Of a stretch of DNA of 64,000 nucleotides, positions 2,959 to 13,661 are shown in pieces. Each line of letters starts with the position of its first letter. Position 1 is the stretch's first letter. Source of the stretch: an uncultured delta proteobacterium (GTDB taxonomy: Bacteria > Desulfobacterota > RBG-13-43-22); assembly GCA_963743305.1 (NCBI GenBank), contig CAVUPH010000012.1:1-64000 (forward strand), given 5' to 3'. The notes below the pieces were generated by a model that saw nothing but the letters and a program-made list of their open reading frames with translations, did no database searches and was not told the origin of the DNA. A program made the position numbers and the translations under genes.

Positions 2959-4930
2959 TCAGCCAATTTTGATCGCCCGGACCTCCGCGGCGCGTTCATC
3001 GACCGGGATCACGGGCAGTTCGCCCTTGTTCTTGACCGGCAGGCTGCGGAGGTGGTCCATGATCGCCTGCCATTCCTTGATCTCCCGGGCGGCTTTCTTC
3101 TTCCCCCCAGTGGCGACACTGCGCTTGTCCAGCGTACCCTTCGGCGGTAGCAGGTCGGGTGTGCTGTCGCGAGGGTCGTCGAGTGCCTCGACCTTCGACT
3201 TGAGGGGCTGTCCCTTCTTGTCCTTGGGAACAAGAGCCAGTTTACCCTTGGTGTACTTCGGGATGGCCATGACAATCATGCCGAGCATCAGGGGGCAGGT
3301 GAGGCTGTACAACCGCTCGTCCTTCCCGCTGATGTCGATGGCGCGGTAGCCGCGATCGAGGTCTCCGATCTCGATGGCCGTCACGACGTCGAACTTGGGG
3401 CGCGACTGGTCGTAGCGGAACCTCATGCCGGAGGTGCGGGGGAAATACTCGCCGGGGTGGGCCGGGTTGTCAACGAGGAAAAACTCGAGCAGATTCTTCA
3501 GCTCCTGGCCGGTGAAGTAGCCAGTCACGAGTGCGCTGCCGGCCGTGGTATCCACGACACCGGCGCCGAGGGGCGCCACGGCGAACACGTCATAGACGGT
3601 TTGCACGCCTGATTTTCCCCGGGTCAAGCCGGCGCGCATCAGCCCGTTGGCGGTGAATGCGATGTCCGCTTTCGTGGCTTTTCTGAAGGCGTCGGTGACA
3701 GAGGTTGGCGAGGGGGGTGCTGGCGGCGATGTCGGTGAACGTGTTGGGCAGGTCCCGCGGCGCCACCGCCAGCGGCTGATCGATGCTGTAACCACGGGAT
3801 GCGAACACGATCCCGGTGACACTCTTCTTGAGCTTGTCGATCTCGTCGGCAATGGCCCGGTCGCCGGCAAAGGTGTCGTCGATCGGGTAGAGCCGGTAGG
3901 ACTCGACCGTCAGCTTGCCGCCGTCCATGGTGACCACCAGCTCGCCGAGGTTCTCTCCATACTTCCCGGTCTGGACCACGGGGGTGCGGCCGTTGACGAT
4001 GATCGCCTCCTGCAGCTCGGTGTGGCTGTGGCCGCCGATCACCACGTCGATGCCCGGCACGGCCTTGGCCAGACTCACGTCGTCGCCCTCGCTGAAGCGC
4101 CCGTCCTTCCCTTTCTGCACGCCGCCATGGCTGAGACAGATGACCACATCCACCTTCTCCGTCTCGCGGAGAAGCGTCACCATCTCCCTGGCGGTCTCGA
4201 TGGCGTCGGTGAACGTAACGGCACCTGCACCACTGGTGTAGAACTGGGCCTCCTTGCCGAGCACCCCGAAGATGCCGAAGCGAATGCCGCCGCGCTCGAT
4301 CACGAGGTGGCGGCGGATCACCCCGGCCTTGGCCAGACGCTGGAGATCGGCCAGCGTTGCGTCTTGCTGCGCGAAGCCGGTATTCGAGGCAAGCACCGCC
4401 GGAACCCGGCCGGCTTTGGCGGCTACGCCGATTGACCCGCCCAGGCCGTCAGGCCCAAGGTCGAATTCATGGTTGCCGAAGGTAGTGGCGTCGTAACCCA
4501 TCCGGGACATGAGTTTAAGTTCGCCGCCGGTCTCGCGGGTAGCGGCGCCGAACGCGGTCCCCATGCTGTAGTCACCCGCGTCAAGCACCAGCACAGGACC
4601 CTGATCTTTGCGCGCCTCCTTCCTCTTAGCGATCAACGCGGCCAGACGCGCGTACCCGCCCCGGGTCGTGTCGTCGTTGAGCTTGAATGGGGTGTAGTCC
4701 GCGGCCGGACCCATGCCGATGAAGGCCGAGTGCATGTCGTTGGTGTGCAGGATGGTGAAGGTCTTCTTCCCGTCCGGGGCCGCGGATAGTACTCCAGGCA
4801 GGCAGATCGTCACGCCGAATGCCGCTGAGACAACCAGGAATTCGCGACGGGAGATCGTATCGCGTGACATGAGAGTGAAGGTCTCCTTCCCGTCCGCTAT
4901 TGCGGCCGGTTCTTTGTCTGTGGTTTTCAT
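2959..4930 (-). CDS. Tat-exported bifunctional UDP-sugar hydrolase/5'-nucleotidase (one frameshift near 3701)
   Basis: SRREFL Tat motif; ILHTNDMHS, LDAGD, GNHEFD and GGHSH metallophosphatase motifs; the C-domain (VTDAFR...ADIAFTANG) continues in another frame; removing one base restores LANLVTDAFR. Confidence 0.85.
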
Positions 4931-5118
4931 TGTTGTGGCCACCTCTTAAAAAAAGGTTTTGGAGAACTCTTTCCCGAGTTTAACCCTTTCGAGGGAAGGC
5001 CCAGGTCGAATTCGATCTTGCCGATGCGCGTGTCGCTCGTTCCCTGAAGAACGGGCGTGGCCTGTGCCCAGGCGGACGCAGTTCTGTTCATTTTACGGGG
5101 TCGAACCAACTTCTTCAT
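4927..5118 (-). pseudogene. N-terminal remnant of a probable DUF1254-like secreted protein
   Basis: RBS + MKKLV...AWAQATPVLQGTSDTRIGKIEFDLGLPSK resembles the TRIG.LEF..G.PS start of DUF1254/DUF1214 proteins, then degenerates. Confidence 0.45.
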
Positions 5119-5216
5119 GGACCTGCCTTTCGATGTTTGCTTGCCAAGGTGGGCCGCACCCGGTTGCGACAGAGTGCGGCCCGATATGTTAATTTAGTGG
5201 TTCATACAACCCGGTG

Positions 5217-6811
5217 TCACTTTTCGCCCCCAGCTTTCGTGATCGATTCCATCACGCGGTCGAGGTTAAAGCTGCCGGGCTTCTGGCGCGGCGGGAACTC
5301 GCGGAAGCTCTGCAGCCACTGTCCGACGTAGGCGCCCGACGGCGCAATCGCAAAGGCGCGCTCCATCATCCATTGGGTGTAGCCCGCGCCTTCATACTCG
5401 GCGCGCTCGAACGGGTCCATGCGCAGATTGGTAATCATCGGTAAGCGCAGTTCCTCGAATGGCTGCTGCCAAACATGGAAACCGTGGGCGTTCTGCTTCA
5501 GGAAGGTCACCTTCCAGTTGTTGTAGCGCAGCGCCGCGACGCTGCCGTCGTCGGTCCAGTAGATGAACTCCTTCCGCGGCCACTCGCCCTGACCCTTGAG
5601 CGCGGGCAGGAGATTATAGCCGTCGAGGTGCACCTTGTAGGTCAGGTTGCCGACTTTCTTGCCCTTCAACAGGTCCTCCTTGGCGCTGGTATCGCCCGCC
5701 GCCGCGAGCAGGGTCGGGAGCATGTCCTCGTGCGCCCCGATGTCGTTGATGACCGTGCCGGGCTTGATGACGCCGGGCCAGCGGATCAGGGTCGGGACCC
5801 GGAAGCCGCCTTCCCAGTTGGTGTTCTTCTCGCCGCGGAACATCGTCGACCCGCCGTCGGGCCACAGGAAGGTTTCCGCGCCGTTGTCGGTGGAATACAT
5901 GACAATGGTGTTGTCTTCGAGGCCCAATTCCTTCAGCTTGGCCAGTATTTGGCCGACCTGGCCGTCATGCTCCACCATCCCATCGGCATAAACGCCCAGC
6001 CCGGTCTTGCCCTCGCTCTCCTTCTTGAGGTGCGTGAAGACGTGCATGCGGGTGGAGTTCCACCACAGGAAGAACGGCTTGTCCGCCTTCTTGGCGCCTG
6101 CTCCATGAAGTCGAGCGCCTTGGCGGTGACTTCTTCGTCTATGGTCTCCATGCGCTTCTTCGTCAGCGGGCCGGTGTCTTCAATCTTGCCGCCGGCGAAA
6201 CTGTGGATGACACCCCGGGGGCCGAACTTCTTTTTGAACTCGGGGTTCTTGGGGTAGTCCGGATTCTCCGGCTCCTCCTCCGCGTTCAGGTGGTAGAGGT
6301 TGCCGAAGAATTCGTCGAACCCGTGGTTCGTCGGCAGCATCTCGTCGCGGTCGCCGAGGTGGTTCTTGCCGAACTGGCCGGTCATGTAACCGTGCGGCTT
6401 GAGCAAGCCGGCAATCGTCGGATCTTCCTTCTTCATTCCCTCGGGCGCGCCCGGCAGTCCGACCTTGGTCAGGCCGGTGCGGATGGGCGACTGCCCGGTG
6501 ATGAACGCCGCGCGGCCGGCGGTGCAGCTCTGCTGGCCATACCAGTCGGTAAATAGCGCTCCTTCCTGCGCGATGCGGTCAATGTTGGGCGTCTTGTAGC
6601 CCATCATGCCCTGGTTGTAGGCGCTGATATTGAACTGGCCGATGTCATCGCCCCAGATGATGAGAATGTTGGGCTTCTTGGCGGCCTTGGGCGCCTCCGC
6701 CGCCTTGCCCGCCATCGGTGCCGCGCACATGATGGTGGCCGCGGCGAGCACGCCGCCGACCGCCGCCCACCGGCGCGCCTTGCTCCCCTTCGTTGGTACT
6801 CGTTTCTCCAT
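5217..6811 (-). CDS. Secreted Cys-type arylsulfatase (one frameshift near 6097)
   Basis: Signal peptide, [25 protein letters not shown] formylglycine motif, [26 protein letters not shown]; the two ORFs join as [21 protein letters not shown]. Confidence 0.9.
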
Positions 6812-6842
6812 GTGCTCCTCCTTCCTTAAAGGCTATTTTTCT

Positions 6843-7598
6843 TTATTTTTGCGTGTTCTCCAGCAAATAGTCCAGGACACTCTCGGCCAGCAGGAGGTCC
6901 TTGAGCCGCGGTCTGCCACTCCCTTGCTCCAGTTCGGCTCTTAAAATGTCGGCCTTGGTCCCGAACTCCGCCGCCTTCTCCTCAATGCGCCGATCAACGT
7001 CTGCTTCTTCCACCTCGATACCCTCTTCCCGGGCGATGCGTTTCAGGATCAGCATGAGCTTGACCCGTTGGGCCGCGGCCTGCCAGGGCTCGCTGCCCGG
7101 CTCACTTTCCGCCAGGCCGTCCGGGGCAAGTTCAGCCCGGATCAACGCATCGGGGATTGGGAAACTTACCAGTTCAAGCAGCCGCAGCGACAGCTCACCC
7201 TGGGGATCCCCGATCCCTGCCTCCACAGGCCTTAAGGACCGGTAATCCGGAAGTTCGAACTCCGGCCAGGGGATAAAGCGCGCCGTGAACCGGAGGGATT
7301 GGCCTGTTTCCCACTCGATCTCCGAGACTTCCACGGGTCCGGCGGCCTCCGCCTGCGCCAGTTCCAGCGCCTGACGGCAGAGGCGGGGGGCGCAGCGGCG
7401 GGACAGATTTTCCGTGATCTCCCGCCGAAACCGCTGCTCCAGAACCTGGCGGGGCACCTTGCCCGGCCTGAATCCCGGCACTCGCAGGCGTGCATAATCT
7501 CTGAGGATATCGTCGTAGTCAGCCGCGATCTCTTCCCAGGGGGCCTCCACGCGCACCTGCCGGTAGCCGTCTTCCAGGCTGACCATCTTCCATTTCAT
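6843..7598 (-). CDS. Mini trigger-factor-like chaperone (ribosome-binding + C-terminal domain, no FKBP PPIase domain), 251 aa
   Basis: GFRPGKVP ribosome-binding signature, PEFELPDY linker, C-domain A.QRVKLMLIL.RIA.EEGIEVEEADVD; ATG 7598 overlaps the maturase TGA (ATGA). Confidence 0.85.
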   Translation of the reverse strand: MKWKMVSLEDGYRQVRVEAPWEEIAADYDDILRDYARLRVPGFRPGKVPRQVLEQRFRREITENLSRRCAPRLCRQALELAQAEAAGPVEVSEIEWETGQSLRFTARFIPWPEFELPDYRSLRPVEAGIGDPQGELSLRLLELVSFPIPDALIRAELAPDGLAESEPGSEPWQAAAQRVKLMLILKRIAREEGIEVEEADVDRRIEEKAAEFGTKADILRAELEQGSGRPRLKDLLLAESVLDYLLENTQK

Positions 7599-8929
7599 GG
7601 TTGTTTCTCTGGGCGCCAGTTCTCCGCCGGAAGGCTTCGGGCTTCCTTCACCACCGGAGCGCCCAGGCTGCGGACGATCTTCTGAATATAGGGATCGATA
7701 TGGGAGAAGAAACGCTTCCAGCCCCGACACAGGTAGTTCAGTCCCGGCTCGCCGTCGGGCGTCTTGAGGAAGCGATTCTTGGGGCATTCGCCGAAGCAGG
7801 CGAACTCATACTCGCACCGCCGGCAGTACTCGGGGAGCGTCCCCTCCTTGCTTTTGCCGAAGCGCTCCTGGCGCTCTGAATAAGCCATCTCTGCCAGAGG
7901 CAGGGTAAGGATGTTACCGAGGGCGTATTCGGGATAGACGTAATGGTCGCAGGCATATACCGAGCCATCATGCTCCAGGGCCAGCCCCTTGCCGCACATG
8001 GGGCTCTGGGTACACAGCGGCGAGACGTGCCCCATCCAGGTCTCCACCGCGGCCTCGAAATAATGGACATAAATCTGGCCCAGGTCCTTACGGTACCACT
8101 CATCGAAGATGCGGCAAAGAAACTCCCCCCAGTCATCTGGATCGACGCACCAGTCCTCCACGATGGACTCGGGATGGCCGGGTCGCGCCTGGGGAGAACC
8201 GTCCTCCGGGATGAATCGCTGGCCCCAGTACTGCGGCGCCGTATACCAAAAGCCTACGGGCTCAACGATGGGAATGAATTGCAGGCGTTTGGCGCCCACC
8301 TCATCCCTGAGAAAGCGATAAACTTGAAGCGGCTGCTTGGCGGTCAACCGGTTCACGCAGCTCAGCGTGGCAAAGTTGACCTGATGTTTTCTGAGCAGCC
8401 GGGCCGCCCGGAAGACCCGATCAAAGCTCCCCGCCCCCGCCTTGTCCTTGCGGTAATGGTCATGGAGTTCTTTGGGGCCGTCGAGGCTCAAGCCCACCAG
8501 AAAATTGTGCTCCGCCAGGAACTCGCACCAGGCCTCGTCAATGAGCGTCCCGTTGGTCTGGAGGTCGTTCTCGCAGCGAACGTGGGGCGGGCAGTACCGC
8601 TTCTGCAACTCCACCACCCGCCGGAAGAAGTCCAGGCCCAGCAGGGTGGGCTCTCCTCCCTGCCAGGAGAACACCACCTCCTTGCAGTTTTGGCCCTGGA
8701 AATACTGCCGGATAAAGGTCTCCAGGATCTCGTCGGTGATGCGCCAGTTGTTTTCCGTGTTCAGCAGGACCTGCTTGGTAAGGTAGTAGCAATAGGTGCA
8801 ACTGAGGTTGCAGAGCGGCCCCGTCGGCTTCACCATCACGTGCATACGCCGCACCGGTTTGCCCCGCCAGAGACGGGGCTTTAATGTTTGGTGCTCACGT
8901 CCCATTTCTGTTCTCTCTAAGTTGTTCAC
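7595..8929 (-). CDS. Anaerobic sulfatase maturase (radical SAM/SPASM, anSME/AslB family)
   Basis: KPTGPLCNLSCTYCYY, WQGGEPTLLG, LQTNGTL, VYACDHYV, CRRC.YEFACFGECPKNRF, NYLCRGW. Confidence 0.95.
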   Translation of the reverse strand: MNNLERTEMGREHQTLKPRLWRGKPVRRMHVMVKPTGPLCNLSCTYCYYLTKQVLLNTENNWRITDEILETFIRQYFQGQNCKEVVFSWQGGEPTLLGLDFFRRVVELQKRYCPPHVRCENDLQTNGTLIDEAWCEFLAEHNFLVGLSLDGPKELHDHYRKDKAGAGSFDRVFRAARLLRKHQVNFATLSCVNRLTAKQPLQVYRFLRDEVGAKRLQFIPIVEPVGFWYTAPQYWGQRFIPEDGSPQARPGHPESIVEDWCVDPDDWGEFLCRIFDEWYRKDLGQIYVHYFEAAVETWMGHVSPLCTQSPMCGKGLALEHDGSVYACDHYVYPEYALGNILTLPLAEMAYSERQERFGKSKEGTLPEYCRRCEYEFACFGECPKNRFLKTPDGEPGLNYLCRGWKRFFSHIDPYIQKIVRSLGAPVVKEARSLPAENWRPEKQP

Positions 8930-9003
8930 TTCTTCTTCGACCCCACGCCAGGACCTCCTTATAGCGGTAGAAATCCATGACCCGAATGTTTTTCAGCCGG
9001 CTC

Positions 9004-10233
9004 CTATCGAATTTCGACGGCCTGCTTTAAGCCCGGCGGGTACTTCATCCAGGCATAGCCCCGGCGCCCCTGCTCATATCCCAGGTTGAAGAGCTGGTTC
9101 ATGTAATTGCGGTCAAACTCTTCCTTCCGCTCCACCTTGAACTCCCCCGGAATGACGGCCAGGTTGAAATCCACTCCGTCCTGCTTGCTCAGAGTGTAAA
9201 TCCGATATAAGTCGCCGACGCCCTGGTATTTGATGATGGTGTTCAGGGCCCGTTCGGTGATGCCTTTCAGACCGGCTTCGGTCATACCCCATTCGGGCTT
9301 GGTCTTGCTGTTCCGGAGGATATACATCCGGGTGGGCCGGGGCTTGGCGTCTTTCCCCCTAACTTCAGTCGTGACCGCCAGGGGCCTGAAAACAAACTCG
9401 TAAGTGATCACCTCGGCCACGACGCCGCCGTCCACGTGGACCTCGTCGTACTTGTTGCCTGCCGCCTCAACTTCCAGATAGATGGGGGGAAACATCACCG
9501 GAATAGAGGCCGACGCCAGCAAGATCTTCCGGAACAGTTTATAAGCCTCCGGGGTGCCGACGGAGGCGATGGCCCCCATGTCCCAGATGGTCAGACGCTG
9601 GGCGTCCAGGTTGGTGGTGCCCACGAATAAGCGGCGGCCTTTCTGATGCTCTATGGCAATGGCCCGGAGCATGTCGTCATCCATCGACTTGGCTGCAAGC
9701 TCCGCCAGGGGCCAGGTGTCGGTGATGGAATCGGACCACAGCATCTTCAGCAGACTGCGCACCCGGTAGATGTTCTCGGTGGTGATGGTGGTATAGACTT
9801 CTTTCAACCTGGCATCGTACTCCGGCCCCAGGAAGGCAAATGGGGCGATAAGCGACCCGGTGCTGATGCCGGTCACCAACTTGAACCGGGGCCGGTCGCC
9901 GTGTTCGGTCCAGCCGCAAAGCAGCCCCGCCCCGAAGGCCCCGTCGGCCCCGCCGCCGGAGATGGCCAGGATATCCACCGTCGGGGTGGCAAAGACGCCG
10001 GCCGGCTTGCCGGGCTGGGCCACCAACTCCTGGCGGATGGATTCCACCGCGCTCCGGTGCATACTGTCATCAGGCGAATCGCCGTATCCCCTAACATCGG
10101 GCATGCCCACCACCCGCGCCTCATCCTGCAGGACCAGAGGCACCGGATGGCGCCCCCTGACAGTGCCGCAGCCTTGCACGAGAATGAAGAGCAGAAAAAG
10201 GTAGAAAGTAGTCCTTAACCTGACTCGCGGCAT
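9004..10233 (-). CDS. Patatin-like phospholipase, probable lipoprotein
   Basis: SGGGADGAFGAG, GISTG nucleophile, HVDGG; LVQGC lipobox after a hydrophobic stretch; start uncertain (10233-10278). Confidence 0.85.
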   Translation of the reverse strand: MPRVRLRTTFYLFLLFILVQGCGTVRGRHPVPLVLQDEARVVGMPDVRGYGDSPDDSMHRSAVESIRQELVAQPGKPAGVFATPTVDILAISGGGADGAFGAGLLCGWTEHGDRPRFKLVTGISTGSLIAPFAFLGPEYDARLKEVYTTITTENIYRVRSLLKMLWSDSITDTWPLAELAAKSMDDDMLRAIAIEHQKGRRLFVGTTNLDAQRLTIWDMGAIASVGTPEAYKLFRKILLASASIPVMFPPIYLEVEAAGNKYDEVHVDGGVVAEVITYEFVFRPLAVTTEVRGKDAKPRPTRMYILRNSKTKPEWGMTEAGLKGITERALNTIIKYQGVGDLYRIYTLSKQDGVDFNLAVIPGEFKVERKEEFDRNYMNQLFNLGYEQGRRGYAWMKYPPGLKQAVEIR

Positions 10234-10253
10234 TCTTTGACATCCAAAACAAC

Positions 10254-10664
10254 TCACTTTTCTCCACCCTCCTGCCATTCTGATGGTCTTTCGGCATGAT
10301 ACAAGCCTGCCTCAATGGCCTCCAAGAGCTGGTGTTCCTGAAAAGGCTTGCGCAAGTAAGCCAATGCGCCAGCGCTTAATCCCTGGGCGCGCTCCTGGTC
10401 GTTATCAAAGGCCGTGATAAAGATAATGCGGAGACGGGAGACTGAGGCGGCCAGGACTTTTTGCAGGGCGAGGCCGCTCAGACCCGGCAGGCGAACGTCC
10501 AGGACCAAAAGCCCCGGGCCCTCTGTCTGGCCGGAATCCAGAAACTCCTGGGCGGACATGAAGGTCTCCACCTGGAATCCGGCTGACTTAAGAAGCCTAC
10601 TCAAGGCCCGGCGCACTGACGCGTCGTCGTCAACCACGTAAATGGTGGGACCGGCTTTAGCCAT
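10254..10664 (-). CDS. Single-domain response regulator (receiver only)
   Basis: IYVVDDD, LVLDVRLPGLSG, IFITA, YLRKPF. Confidence 0.9.
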   Translation of the reverse strand: MAKAGPTIYVVDDDASVRRALSRLLKSAGFQVETFMSAQEFLDSGQTEGPGLLVLDVRLPGLSGLALQKVLAASVSRLRIIFITAFDNDQERAQGLSAGALAYLRKPFQEHQLLEAIEAGLYHAERPSEWQEGGEK

Positions 10665-10759
10665 GCAAATTTATTCCGCCTGAGGTTGCGCACCTGGCAA
10701 AGACGAGCAAAAAGGAGAAAACTTAATCGGAAGGATAAAGAAAGAAACGGATTCCGACA

Positions 10760-10777
10760 ATTGGACTTTGGTCCAAT
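10760..10777. promoter_or_regulatory. Perfect 7-4-7 palindrome, candidate FixJ/NarL-type operator
   Basis: ATTGGAC-TTTG-GTCCAAT between the FixJ-like gene and the downstream transcription unit. Confidence 0.55.
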
Positions 10778-10782
10778 GCCGG

Positions 10783-11409
10783 TTATTTTTTCGAGGGGTA
10801 GATCCCGGCTTTGGCCGCCAGACGGACCAGTTCGGCCAGGGAGGGGCAGTTGAGCTTTTGCATGACCCGGCCCCGGTGCACCTTGATGGTTTTCTCCGCG
10901 GTGCCCAGGTCCCAGGCGATTTCCTTATTCAATTTACCGGCCGCCACCAGGGCTAGGACCTGGCGTTCCCGGGGAGTAAGCGCGGCGAGCCGGCGCTCAA
11001 TCGCCGTCATTTCCGACTTTTCCTGACGGGTCTGATAGTTCCCGGCCAGCGCCTGGTTCACGGCAGCCAGTAGAGTTTGGTCATCCACCGGCTTTTCCAG
11101 GAATTCCACAGCCCCGGCCTTCATGGCGCGCACACTTTCAGGCACGGTGCCGTAACCCGTGAGAAAAATAATGGGGAGGTCAAGATGAGCCGCGGCGAGC
11201 TTCTCTTGCAAGTCCAGCCCGCTGATCCCCGGGAGACGCAGATCCAGGACCAGACAACCGGGAGTGTCGGGCCGCCTGGCTGCCAGGAACTCCTGGGCCT
11301 CGGCGAAGGTCTCGACGTGTAAACCCGCCGACCTGAATAACCTTTGCAAGGCCTTCCGCACGGCGGGGTCGTCATCCACCACAAAGACTGTGGCCTCCGC
11401 ATCACTCAT
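10783..11409 (-). CDS. FixJ/TtrR/NodW-family response regulator (REC + LuxR HTH)
   Basis: VFVVDDD, LVLDLRLPG, AMKAGAVEFLEKP, LTPRERQVL...LNKEIA.DLGTAEKTIKVHRGRVMQKL; ATG overlaps the kinase stop. Confidence 0.92.
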   Translation of the reverse strand: MSDAEATVFVVDDDPAVRKALQRLFRSAGLHVETFAEAQEFLAARRPDTPGCLVLDLRLPGISGLDLQEKLAAAHLDLPIIFLTGYGTVPESVRAMKAGAVEFLEKPVDDQTLLAAVNQALAGNYQTRQEKSEMTAIERRLAALTPRERQVLALVAAGKLNKEIAWDLGTAEKTIKVHRGRVMQKLNCPSLAELVRLAAKAGIYPSKK

Positions 11410-13661
11410 GGACCCTCCTCCTGGAAAACCGGCAGGGTGAAGTGGAGAGCGGTCCCTCGATGGGGAAGGGGGGTGGCCCAAAGTTTGCCGCCATGGGCTT
11501 CGATAATGGCGCGGCTCAAAGAAAGCCCCAGCCCCAGGCCGTCTGGTTTGGTAGTGAAAAAGGGCTCGAAAATCTGCTCCGCTTCCTCAGGTTTAATCCC
11601 CCTACCCGAGTCCAGAATGGATACCAGGAGGGTAGCAGCATCCTGTCTCCCTGTCTTGATCTCGAGATTTCGGGAACCTGTGGGCATGTTTCTAACCGCC
11701 TCCAGGCCGTTCAGGATGAGATTGAGCACCACCTGCTCCAGTTGAATGCGGTCGCCAAGCACCAGGGGCAGGTCATCGGGTAAGGCATACGCGAGCTTGA
11801 CATTGCTGGCCGCGGCTTCAGTGTGGACCAGAACCACAACCCCCTGCACGACATCATTGAGAGACACGGGCTTGCGCTCGAACTCGCCCCGCCTGAGGTG
11901 CCGGCGTAAATGGTGGACCATGTCGCCGGCCCGCTTGCTGTCTTGGGCGATGTCCTTAAGAATCTCCGCCACCTCTGCCGGGTCCGGCGCCGTTCCCTGG
12001 AGAAAACGCTGCCCCGCCTGGGCATTGCTAAGGATGGCGGTAAGCGGTTGATTGAGCTCATGGGCCAGGGAAGCGGTGAGTTCCCCCAGCATCCCCACCC
12101 GGCTCAGGTGGGCCAGCTCCTCGCGGTGGCGCTGGGCCTCAAGCTCAGCCTGGAGGCGGTCGGTGATATCACGATTACTGACCCTGATTCCCAGAAACTC
12201 GCCCTGGCTTCCAGTGACCGGCTGGCAGGTATGCTCGATCCAACGGATTCCGCCGTCTTTCCGGCCGATGCGAAAGCGCAGCTCGCCGGCCTGCATTCCC
12301 TGGTGCTCGTCCTGATGATGGCAATTCCATAAGGTCTGGTCTTCTGACACCACGATTTCCCGGAGCAGATCGGGGTGCGCCAAAAACTCTTCCGCCCGGT
12401 AGCCGGAGATGCGCTCACAGGAAGGGGATACATACTTGAGGGTGCCGTCGGGGTTAGCCCAATATTCCCAGTCATACGTAAAATCAGCCACCGTGCGGTA
12501 ATTCTGTTCCGCCTGTCGGCGCTTGCGGCGATTGATGGTGAGAAGCCCAATCATTAAGCCCTGAATGAAGACAAGGGCGATCAAACCTACGATGCGCCAT
12601 CTGTAAAGTTCCCAAACAGATAAGTCTTTGAAGCGCACCACACTGCCGGGAGGCAAAGCTGCCTCGGACAAGCCCCATCGCTTGAGCTGACGCCAATCAA
12701 ACAGATAAAAATTGGCCCCTTCAACCACGATGGGAATATCGTCGGGTTTTTCGCCCTGGAGCACGCGTCGCCCTATTTCACCGGCTATTCGTCCTTGGGC
12801 TCTGAAGCTCATGAGATGCCCCCCCACAATGCCGTGCCCCAACAAAGTTTCCCAAAGGCCGTAAACCGGCACCTTGGCCGTCTGCGAGACGAGAGCCGCG
12901 GCGTCCCGGGGAATGAATTCCTTGCCCTCACTATCCCGCAACAGCGTGAGAAGAAGGACAATGGCCTGGGGAGGCAGATTGCCCAAGCGTTTGAAGATTT
13001 CTGAAGCCGGAAGATCGGTCAGGAAGGTGGCCTCGAGACGTCCTTCATAGCGACGCAACGCCTCGCGCGCCAATTGCTGAAATAACCTATCGGTTTTGGC
13101 GGTCCCCCCGACGACCACCACCTGCCGGGTTTGCGGCTGCATCTTGAGGGCCGCCTCCAAGGTGCCCTCCACGTCGATCCAGGCAACCACGCCGGTACTG
13201 TTTTTCGGCTTGGCGAGAGTCTGAATCTCGGTTTTCACTGCCGCGCAAAAGACCATGGGCACACCGGGAAAGAGCGAGTTGCCATGGGACGACAGAAACT
13301 GAAAGGCCAAGTCCCCCACTGGAATCAGGAGGTCGATTTTCTTGCCGCTATATTTGTTTTGCAATAGGGTGATCAGGTTTTTGACATAGGACTCGCCAGG
13401 GAAGCGCGCCAGATCCAGGTATTCCGTATAGAATTCCAGCGGTCCAGGGTCAATGCCTTGCAGTCCCGAGCGAATGCCCTCATCCCATTCCAGAATGGCA
13501 GGAAGCACCGATTGGTAAGAATAGAGCAGCAGGATCTTCTTGGGGGGTTGCGCTTCTGAGGCGAAAGCCGGGAAACCGCACCACAAGAGCGCCAGGCACA
13601 CAAACGCCTTCAGCAAAAGGGGTTTGCCTACGGGTTTCTCGACTTGCTTTTTGGAATCCAT
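11406..13661 (-). CDS. FixL-like sensor histidine kinase (periplasmic ABC-binding-like domain, TM, PAS, HisKA, HATPase)
   Basis: Signal peptide; FDWRQLKRWG; PAS YVSPSCERISGY; LAHELNQPL; QVVLNLILNG; DSGRG; FFTTKPDGLGLGL. Confidence 0.92.
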   Translation of the reverse strand: MDSKKQVEKPVGKPLLLKAFVCLALLWCGFPAFASEAQPPKKILLLYSYQSVLPAILEWDEGIRSGLQGIDPGPLEFYTEYLDLARFPGESYVKNLITLLQNKYSGKKIDLLIPVGDLAFQFLSSHGNSLFPGVPMVFCAAVKTEIQTLAKPKNSTGVVAWIDVEGTLEAALKMQPQTRQVVVVGGTAKTDRLFQQLAREALRRYEGRLEATFLTDLPASEIFKRLGNLPPQAIVLLLTLLRDSEGKEFIPRDAAALVSQTAKVPVYGLWETLLGHGIVGGHLMSFRAQGRIAGEIGRRVLQGEKPDDIPIVVEGANFYLFDWRQLKRWGLSEAALPPGSVVRFKDLSVWELYRWRIVGLIALVFIQGLMIGLLTINRRKRRQAEQNYRTVADFTYDWEYWANPDGTLKYVSPSCERISGYRAEEFLAHPDLLREIVVSEDQTLWNCHHQDEHQGMQAGELRFRIGRKDGGIRWIEHTCQPVTGSQGEFLGIRVSNRDITDRLQAELEAQRHREELAHLSRVGMLGELTASLAHELNQPLTAILSNAQAGQRFLQGTAPDPAEVAEILKDIAQDSKRAGDMVHHLRRHLRRGEFERKPVSLNDVVQGVVVLVHTEAAASNVKLAYALPDDLPLVLGDRIQLEQVVLNLILNGLEAVRNMPTGSRNLEIKTGRQDAATLLVSILDSGRGIKPEEAEQIFEPFFTTKPDGLGLGLSLSRAIIEAHGGKLWATPLPHRGTALHFTLPVFQEEGP

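Follow-up and report, generated by a model that had tools for sequence, protein, structure and literature searches.

The locus described here raises the question of why a gene for a shortened trigger factor should stand between the gene for a sulfatase maturase and that for a sulfatase. It lies in the first 64,000 nucleotides of contig CAVUPH010000012.1 from an uncultured delta proteobacterium (GenBank assembly GCA_963743305.1, phylum Desulfobacterota), and this whole stretch of DNA is called the window below. The maturase is an anaerobic sulfatase-maturating enzyme (anSME), which belongs to the radical S-adenosylmethionine (SAM) enzymes. An anSME is cytoplasmic and acts on an unfolded motif, and the Sec system exports unfolded chains. 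To our knowledge, the question of how a cytoplasmic radical-SAM maturase reaches the cysteine of an unfolded protein bound for Sec has never received a dedicated answer. The protein encoded between the two genes, which we call the mini trigger factor, is very probably a trigger factor paralog dedicated to this maturase/sulfatase system.

An earlier note on this DNA had described a maturase gene, a gene for a 251-amino-acid trigger-factor-like protein and a gene for a secreted sulfatase, in this order on one strand. It also stated that the start of the second gene overlaps the stop of the first and that about 30 nucleotides separate the second from the third. All of these statements agree with the open reading frames (ORFs) of the window (Table 1). 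The note further held that the middle protein keeps the GFRPGKVP signature and the C domain and has lost the FKBP domain and part of the arms. It predicted that profiles for Trigger_N and Trigger_C, and none for FKBP_C, would match, and that a separate full-length trigger factor gene (tig) would be found in the genome. These expectations were confirmed as well, with the C domain represented by its second half.

In Pfam searches, Trigger_N matches residues 1-122 of the mini trigger factor (82.9 bits), and Trigger_C matches residues 163-247 with positions 78-162 of a profile of 162 positions, i.e. its last half. FKBP_C, the central peptidyl-prolyl isomerase (PPIase) domain of Tig, has no Pfam match at E-values up to 0.1. 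The score against TIGR00115, the equivalog model for Tig, is 127 bits, below the cut-off of 180.2, and the C domain is incomplete compared with that of Tig. An AlphaFold2 (AF2) model calculated with 17 family members has a predicted local distance difference test score of 89.6 and a predicted template modelling score of 0.78. Its best matches among solved structures are the trigger factors 3gty, 2vrh and 1w26 (E-values of 3.5e-8 to 1e-6), and GFRPGKVP forms a loop between helices 21-36 and 50-56 of the model.

The genome is a metagenome-assembled genome (MAG) of 43 contigs and 4.9 Mb that is 90% complete, and it contains exactly two Trigger_N matches. The second is a 429-amino-acid tig product with Trigger_N, FKBP_C and a full Trigger_C, and clpP, clpX and lon come after its gene. 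The mini trigger factor is 25-26% identical to this protein, and its residues align to tig residues 38-145 and 292-425. Because the alignment skips tig residues ~146-291, the mini trigger factor is without the PPIase domain and the initial part of the C domain. The two kinds of protein are nonetheless homologous in the N domain, with its GFRxGxxP signature, and in the C-terminal helical module, and the predicted fold of the mini trigger factor matches trigger factor structures. By contrast, they differ in length (about 430 versus 251 amino acids) and in the genes with which they are encoded, namely clpP-clpX for Tig, and a maturase and its client for the mini trigger factor.

The shortened architecture is that of a family. 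A word-indexed protein search gave 612 matches at E ≤0.001, and the best 120 of the 612 are 215-271 amino acids long with Trigger_N and Trigger_C only. In a library of representatives at 50% identity, 76 proteins match at E ≤1e-30; about 50 of them match in a single stretch and have ~245-260 amino acids or are fragments of such proteins. Below these, ordinary trigger factors of 430 amino acids begin. Family members are 243-291 amino acids long, and even at 38-43% identity between phyla they share an invariant signature and many further invariant residues. Among 17 members (down to 54% identity), G42, F43, R44, K47, P49 and some 40 other residues are invariant, and 60 of the 63 complete ORFs of related loci contain GFR.G[KR].P. 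This conservation of the signature loop suggests that the mini trigger factor may bind the ribosome. One homologue is named as a protein of a Desulfobaccales MAG, and the Atlas cluster of a homologue (P0033) has Thermodesulfobacteriota as its commonest phylum.

In species genomes the mini trigger factor is rare: among 21 genomes of the order only the window's own has it, and in a sample of the phylum it occurs in 3 of 401 genomes. Therefore, its gene context was drawn mostly from metagenome contigs. A scan of species genomes with full-length alignment kept 80 loci, of which 2 covered the whole query, and the query was rebuilt from C-terminal halves because the GFRPGK pattern had drawn in ordinary tig genes. 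The set under study consists of 77 loci, i.e. 73 metagenome contigs obtained with the C-terminal-half query and 4 loci from species genomes, of which two are MAGs (one of Krumholzibacteriota, one of Paludibacteraceae) and two belong to the window's phylum. Four of the 77 had no trigger factor match of at least 100 amino acids and were set aside. A locus was counted as testable if more than 300 nucleotides of sequence were available upstream (55 loci) or downstream (61 loci).

In 48 of the 55 testable loci, the gene immediately upstream on the same strand encodes a maturase. The adjacent downstream gene encodes a sulfatase in 43 of 61 loci, and 54 of the 61 have a sulfatase gene at some downstream position. 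The proportions are similar with one locus per cluster at 90% identity (maturase upstream in 37/43, sulfatase directly downstream in 32/46 and anywhere downstream in 40/46) or at 70% identity (19/21, 15/21 and 18/21, respectively). The four-nucleotide overlap between maturase stop and trigger factor start recurs in 36 of the 58 loci that have both gene ends. Linkage is seen in at least three phyla, and all four species genomes repeat the order. The order of the cassette is thus beyond chance and recurs in dozens of independent loci, and the linkage of homologs to anSME and sulfatase genes that the earlier note had proposed to look for is present.

There are seven exceptions upstream. A DDE transposase (DDE_Tnp_1_6, DUF772; positions 117-1715) is inserted in locus L132, an IS-disrupted copy in which the mini trigger factor starts at residue 67. 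L120 is a bare C-terminal fragment. About 800 nucleotides are inserted after the maturase gene in L106 and L108, which represent one population, and a 600-nucleotide gap is found in L153. In L152 a sulfatase gene takes the upstream place, and L155 has an intact copy with neither partner gene nearby.

Some other genes recur in these loci. Secreted proteins of ~520 amino acids with DUF1254 and DUF1214 are encoded between or beside the factor and the sulfatases (L097:3628-5193, L143:3153-6213, L101:1473-3044). A small protein of ~150-180 amino acids with one N-terminal membrane helix is encoded directly after the mini trigger factor (L095:6376-6912, L104:1536-2072, L097:2928-3590, L110:3524-3970). 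Its conserved core reads W-x-R-P-D-G-G-Y...A-A-Y-F-N-P-R-P-I, and the copies of L095 and L097, which were scanned, match no Pfam family. After the sulfatase in L191 (G404:C160) and L194 (G310:C53) there is a gene for a secreted protein of ~310-330 amino acids that starts D-P-L-P-S-W-N...F-D-x-D-G-T-L-W and is, by eye, similar to the haloacid dehalogenase superfamily.

The downstream sulfatases have a feature that sets them apart. Their signal peptides share a motif of approximately K-A-x-x-W-A-[AVS]-V-G-x-[VI]-L-A-A-A, which can be summarized as K-A-x-x-W-A-A-V-G-x-V-L-A-A. The sulfatases counted were picked by their formylglycine motif, and their N-termini were checked afterwards; all 52 that could be evaluated are Cys-type enzymes, and the signal motif is present in 52/52 with a relaxed pattern and in 50/52 with a strict one. 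The formylglycine motifs among 59 matches are CTAGR (39), CSPTR (13), CTPGR (2) and CTPSR (1). The signal motif spans subfamilies (C-T-A-G-R and C-S-P-T-R types) whose mature parts are down to 31-35% identical. Pairs that are less than 35% identical in the mature part have a median identity of 55% over the 20-residue signal window, several positions of which are fixed by the pattern used for picking the sequences. Positions outside that pattern are also kept, with K at -4 in 29 of 36 and A at -3 in 33 of 36. In the two most distant loci (Paludibacteraceae and L156) the motif reads A-[AV]-V-G-A-[IV]-L-A, and I replaces W.

By contrast, the motif is absent from all 25 evaluable control sulfatases of the same phylum, which were taken from the 30 best-scoring sulfatase loci of 301 genomes. 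Their N-termini carry Tat-type (twin-arginine translocation) signals, ordinary signals or none. Signals of the ordinary kind are also found on the exported DUF1254/DUF1214 neighbours, which are not sulfatases. A search of all six reading frames of the 4.9-Mb genome gave a single match to the strict pattern, at the sulfatase of the window. The codons of the motif were compared as well: its invariant V, G, L and A are encoded by all of their synonymous codons, and the median pairwise identity is 0.75 at codon positions 1 and 2 versus 0.44 at position 3. Because synonymous codons vary freely, it is the protein sequence of the motif that is conserved, irrespective of any contribution from recombination.

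Two conventional explanations of this N-terminus were considered and rejected. The signal of the window's sulfatase contains R-R, which would suit a Tat signal, but R-R is not conserved, and homologs have, for example, K-A-M-K-W, K-A-R-T-W or K-A-A-L-W in its place. A lipoprotein signal was rejected by eye, since no lipobox surrounds the Cys that follows the hydrophobic core, and this Cys is not conserved.

Loci in which one component differs provide natural contrasts. Of 29 maturase loci in the phylum sample, 28 have a maturase that is only 42-52% identical to that of the window, and none of the 29 has a mini trigger factor or the signal motif. In L179 (G381:C32, ~100-1500) the maturase is 90% identical to the window's, and the mini trigger factor is cut to its first ~22 residues. 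This remnant is followed by ~700 nucleotides without a long frame and then by a sulfatase that has a Tat-type signal and lacks the motif, although its subfamily carries the motif in other loci. L177 encodes an 80%-identical orthologue of the window's sulfatase without any signal peptide, and the adjoining maturase has no trigger factor. Since sulfatases that are exported by Tat or stay in the cytoplasm would not need the factor, L179 and L177 fit the proposal made below, each as a single case. One genome (G310) has two systems. The first combines a linked maturase with a Cys-type sulfatase that bears the motif; in the second, an unlinked maturase is near a Ser-type sulfatase with an ordinary signal.

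The maturase itself is clearly an anSME. It scores 485.3 bits against TIGR03942 (cut-off 349.45), its Pfam domains are Radical_SAM and SPASM, and the closest solved structure is anSMEcpe (4k36/4k37; E = 1.5e-70 for 4k36). C40, C44 and C47 of the CX3CX2C radical-SAM motif are invariant in 27 linked homologs, as are C306, C312, C327, C369, C372, C378, C382 and C401, and the cysteines for the two auxiliary clusters of a SPASM domain are thus present. No other anSME was found in the genome. A quick maximum-likelihood tree was calculated from 27 linked and 28 unlinked maturases. In this tree, all linked maturases fall on one side of a branch of length 0.82 with a support of 100 in the Shimodaira-Hasegawa-like approximate likelihood ratio test (SH-aLRT), and the two sequences from other phyla are basal. 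The conserved signal motif and this single clade of linked maturases strengthen the case that the mini trigger factor is dedicated to sulfatase maturation. The claim, which the earlier note had also made, is now well supported by synteny, the separate tig, the signal motif and the maturase clade.

We propose that the mini trigger factor is a dedicated chaperone that reads the signal of the pre-sulfatase and holds this protein for the maturase before export by Sec, and we give this full statement a probability of roughly 0.5. Ordinary trigger factor slows export; it binds to nascent chains where they leave the ribosomal tunnel, with a preference for basic or aromatic stretches. The mini trigger factor would likewise sit at the ribosome exit, where it would recognise the special signal as it emerges (basic and aromatic residues, then A-A-V-G-x-V-L-A-A). 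It would then keep the pre-sulfatase unfolded and not yet exported. The cytoplasmic radical-SAM maturase would convert Cys96 to formylglycine, and Sec translocation would follow. Recognition of the signal peptide by the mini trigger factor and a co-translational timing are steps that we infer; the earlier note had likewise suggested a ribosome-bound holdase or adaptor that hands nascent sulfatases to the maturase.

A more specific form of this proposal, which we advance tentatively, is that the signal peptide also serves as a leader peptide. A trigger factor module tethered to the ribosome would present the emerging Cys motif to the radical-SAM/SPASM enzyme, and formylglycine would be installed during translation and before Sec. 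The logic would resemble that of RiPPs, peptides that are synthesized on ribosomes and modified after translation, where radical SAM/SPASM enzymes act with a conserved N-terminal recognition sequence and a small reader encoded nearby, such as a RiPP recognition element (RRE) or PqqD-like domain. This is an analogy from general knowledge. Here, the substrate is a 530-amino-acid enzyme rather than a peptide, the leader would be an export signal and the putative reader would be a trigger factor module. Pfam and curated-model scans detected no RRE or PqqD-like domain in the cassette proteins. It is conceivable, if somewhat doubtful, that the combination of leader, reader and radical-SAM enzyme known from RiPPs operates on a full-size secreted enzyme in this way, with a trigger factor module replacing the RRE.

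Several observations weigh against the proposed chaperone function. An anSME occurs in 68 of the 401 genomes of the phylum sample and the mini trigger factor in 3, so the factor is an accessory and not a requirement; indeed, most anaerobes mature Sec-exported sulfatases without it. In L155 an intact mini trigger factor has no maturase or sulfatase gene within ~5 kb. The maturase tree compares groups defined by the very feature that was counted, has unlinked sequences from one phylum, and comes from a quick search only. Linked and unlinked maturases differ by a 6-residue insertion and by no segment of domain size that might serve as a docking site. No fusion of maturase and trigger factor turned up among longer proteins, where the 16 matches at E ≤1e-10 are all ordinary trigger factors; this is weak evidence. 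The loss of the trigger factor together with a change to a Tat signal is a single case (L179). The binding steps, to the ribosome, the maturase and the nascent sulfatase, are all inferential. Predictions of a complex of maturase and mini trigger factor scored 0.26 and 0.07 compared with a mark of 0.32, in a run that had no control pairs, and are counted neither for nor against the proposal. Finally, the client sulfatase is frameshifted in this assembly.

The frameshift affects the earlier note's description of a secreted arylsulfatase. The signal peptide, the sulfatase fold and the C-T-A-G-R motif support that description, but the note had overlooked that the gene as assembled consists of two frames, 5933-6811 (292 amino acids) and 5217-6047 (276 amino acids), both of which match Pfam Sulfatase. 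The cause is an insertion of two nucleotides near 6094-6099 relative to metagenome loci L087 and L089, which are 96-98% identical and in which the gene is intact. The two extra letters are also absent from the covering contigs of 3/3 public DNA runs, and the contig from run X2 is otherwise identical over 150 bases. Since neither these runs nor the near-identical loci have it, the break is private to this assembly. It could be a consensus error or a rare allele. An assembly error is likelier, because two further genes (2959-4942 of the window and one on contig C13) are also split. The intact 530-amino-acid form (L087) matches the arylsulfatase 7aj0 and human ARSA. The gene thus has the fold and motif of an S1 sulfatase, in a frame that is broken here and intact in L087, L089 and the contigs of the three DNA runs.

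The first of the two other split genes is downstream of the sulfatase, at 2959-4942 (-). It resembles genes for 5'-nucleotidases or metallophosphoesterases, has a Tat-type signal (S-R-R-E-F-L) and is divided into two frames that overlap (3590-4942 and 2959-3870), apparently by another frameshift of the assembly. The other is the only additional Pfam Sulfatase-superfamily gene of the genome (contig C13, ~4555-5546). It is in two frames, has no signal peptide, and has S-D-T-L-R-R-D at the place of the formylglycine motif. Because it lacks the motif, the sulfatase of the window is the only formylglycine-type client that we found for the genome's only anSME.

Other explanations of the cassette must be considered. 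The mini trigger factor could be a partner of the maturase, either as a stabilising subunit or as a chaperone for its folding or its Fe-S loading, with the signal motif read by the maturase or by something else. The tightest genomic link of the factor is indeed to the maturase, given the adjacency and the overlapping gene ends in the counts above, and genes for DUF1254/DUF1214 proteins or the small protein described above can intervene between the factor and the sulfatase. A long stem that sets the linked maturases apart as a clade would also be expected. However, the strong constraint on the ribosome-docking signature is hard to explain for a post-translational subunit. Moreover, the motif is on the client, and in L179 it was lost together with the trigger factor despite a maturase that is 90% identical. 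The lack of a fusion with the maturase speaks weakly against this explanation too. Overall, we consider it unlikely.

It is rather improbable that the factor and the special signal form an export-routing device, which would target the sulfatase to Sec or keep it away from Sec independently of formylglycine, the maturase merely sharing the operon. Such a device would account for the location of the motif in the signal peptide and for the Tat, ordinary Sec or missing signals of sulfatases that lack the factor. It would also be in keeping with the housekeeping trigger factor, which competes with the signal recognition particle (SRP) and slows export. By contrast, a routing function does not predict that the exported DUF1254/DUF1214 neighbours have ordinary signals, that all 52 clients bearing the motif are Cys-type sulfatases, or that the gene shows coupling with the maturase and not with the client or any Sec component.

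It is very improbable that the mini trigger factor is a decaying paralog without a specific role that hitch-hikes on a mobile island, with shared descent or recombination and 5' gene conversion behind the common signals: its patchy spread (1/21 and 3/401 genomes), the higher G+C content of the cassette region (0.60-0.62) compared with most of the window and the disrupted copies in L132 (transposase), L120 (fragment) and L179 (remnant) fit this idea, but the steady length, the residues that stay invariant across phyla, the single-stretch architecture kept by ~50 clusters at 50% identity and the conservation of the motif as protein under free synonymous change do not.

The proposal of a chaperone that reads the signal is best judged beside systems that are already known. 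The earlier note knew of no characterised system of this kind. In PceT, which is trigger-factor-like, the truncation is the opposite of that in the mini trigger factor: the PPIase domain is present and the ribosome-binding N domain absent. The comparison made here is one of descriptions. Like the mini trigger factor, the PceT/RdhT proteins are trigger factor paralogs encoded in the operon of one exported enzyme that depends on a cofactor or modification (PMC8905343). The same source describes PceT as binding the Tat signal of its client and accompanying the unexported precursor at a ratio of ~1:1. Trigger-factor-like chaperones that are dedicated to a client and bind its export signal are therefore known (PMC8905343), and to this degree the note's statement does not stand. 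The mini trigger factor is similarly encoded with its client, as the counts of downstream sulfatases and upstream maturases indicate. That it might bind a signal as PceT does is suggested by the distribution of the motif among linked sulfatases (52/52) and controls (0/25) and by its loss in L179. The systems differ in that the client signal is of the Tat type and maturation consists of cofactor insertion in the PceT/RdhT case, whereas here there is a non-Tat motif and oxidation of a side chain by a radical-SAM enzyme. The remainder of the note's statement stands: we found no paper that joins a trigger factor with anaerobic sulfatase maturation or that describes the mini trigger factor, in a search that excluded supplements and subscription journals.

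Pairs of anSME and sulfatase without a chaperone are established, namely AtsB/AtsA of Klebsiella, ChuR of Bacteroides and anSMEcpe of Clostridium. They share the enzyme family and the chemistry (TIGR03942; 4k36) with the present system, and the client is an S1 enzyme with C-x-[PA]-x-R. We know of no trigger factor gene and no dedicated signal motif in these systems. The unlinked anSMEs of the window's own phylum, whose 29 loci were described above, belong to the same chaperone-less type and are 42-52% identical to the linked clade.

Trigger factors reduced in other ways also exist. An Atlas cluster of proteins of ~258 amino acids with Trigger_N and Trigger_C, whose commonest phylum is Microgenomatota, lacks the PPIase domain like the mini trigger factor. 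Tig2 of plant plastids consists of the N domain only and works in ribosome biogenesis, and it illustrates that the ribosome-binding module can be kept while others are lost (PMC11731035). By contrast with the mini trigger factor, no maturase, client gene or signal motif is known to accompany Tig2 or the PPIase-less trigger factors of Patescibacteria.

Table 1 Components of the cassette and their positions in the window
Feature	Position	Strand	Remarks
Cassette of three ORFs		(-)	Order maturase, mini trigger factor, sulfatase; all on this strand
anSME (radical SAM/SPASM)	7595..8929	(-)	444 amino acids from first GTG at 8929; TGA stop 7595-7597
Mini trigger factor	6843..7598	(-)	251 amino acids; N domain and C-terminal part of C domain
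ATGA overlap of maturase stop (TGA 7597-7595) and mini trigger factor start (ATG 7598-7596)	7595..7598	(-)	Read from sequence
GFRPGKVP loop	7452..7475	(-)	Residues 42-49 of mini trigger factor; trigger factor signature
Spacer of 31 nucleotides before sulfatase ATG (6811)	6812..6842	(-)	Contains GGAGGAG ribosome-binding site; read from sequence
Cys-type S1 (formylglycine-dependent) sulfatase	5217..6811	(-)	N-terminal signal peptide; Pfam Sulfatase
Conserved signal-peptide motif	6737..6781	(-)	Sulfatase residues 11-25; common to linked sulfatases
Formylglycine motif C-T-A-G-R	6512..6526	(-)	Sulfatase residues 96-100; Cys96 is predicted maturase target

We now note some properties of the locus beyond those in Table 1. 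An ATG at 8904 is an alternative start of the maturase gene and may be the true one. The ATGA overlap points to translational coupling of the maturase and the mini trigger factor. Contigs of the X15 metatranscriptome cover parts of all three genes (92-99% likeness), with two bins uncovered and no gene junction bridged. They are no evidence for an operon transcript, and such libraries can hold DNA. A scan for promoters and terminators gave counts equal to those in shuffled sequence.

The G+C content is 0.60-0.62 over positions 4001-10000, which include the cassette and its flanks, compared with ~0.45-0.58 in most of the window. Together with the absence of a mini trigger factor from the other 20 genomes of the order, this hints at horizontal acquisition. 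Upstream of the maturase, the minus strand (9004-10278 and 10254-13661) has an ORF for a patatin-like protein of the lipoprotein type, two response-regulator ORFs and a sensor histidine kinase of 751 amino acids. Judged by eye, the kinase contains a periplasmic region like the substrate-binding proteins of ATP-binding cassette (ABC) transporters.

For annotation, the family implies a simple rule: where a "trigger factor" of ~250 amino acids is encoded by the gene directly downstream of that for an anSME, it is distinct from the housekeeping tig. The cassette also offers a testable answer to the question of how the maturase reaches its cysteine in time, since it consists of a small chaperone that folds well, a signal motif defined over 15 residues, a single maturase and a single client. 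If the proposal is true, the factor could raise the yield of active recombinant sulfatases and of formylglycine-tagged proteins in anaerobic conditions. It would also be the first ribosome-associated chaperone dedicated to an enzyme of post-translational (or co-translational) modification, and an export signal would be able to carry a second, specific recognition code.

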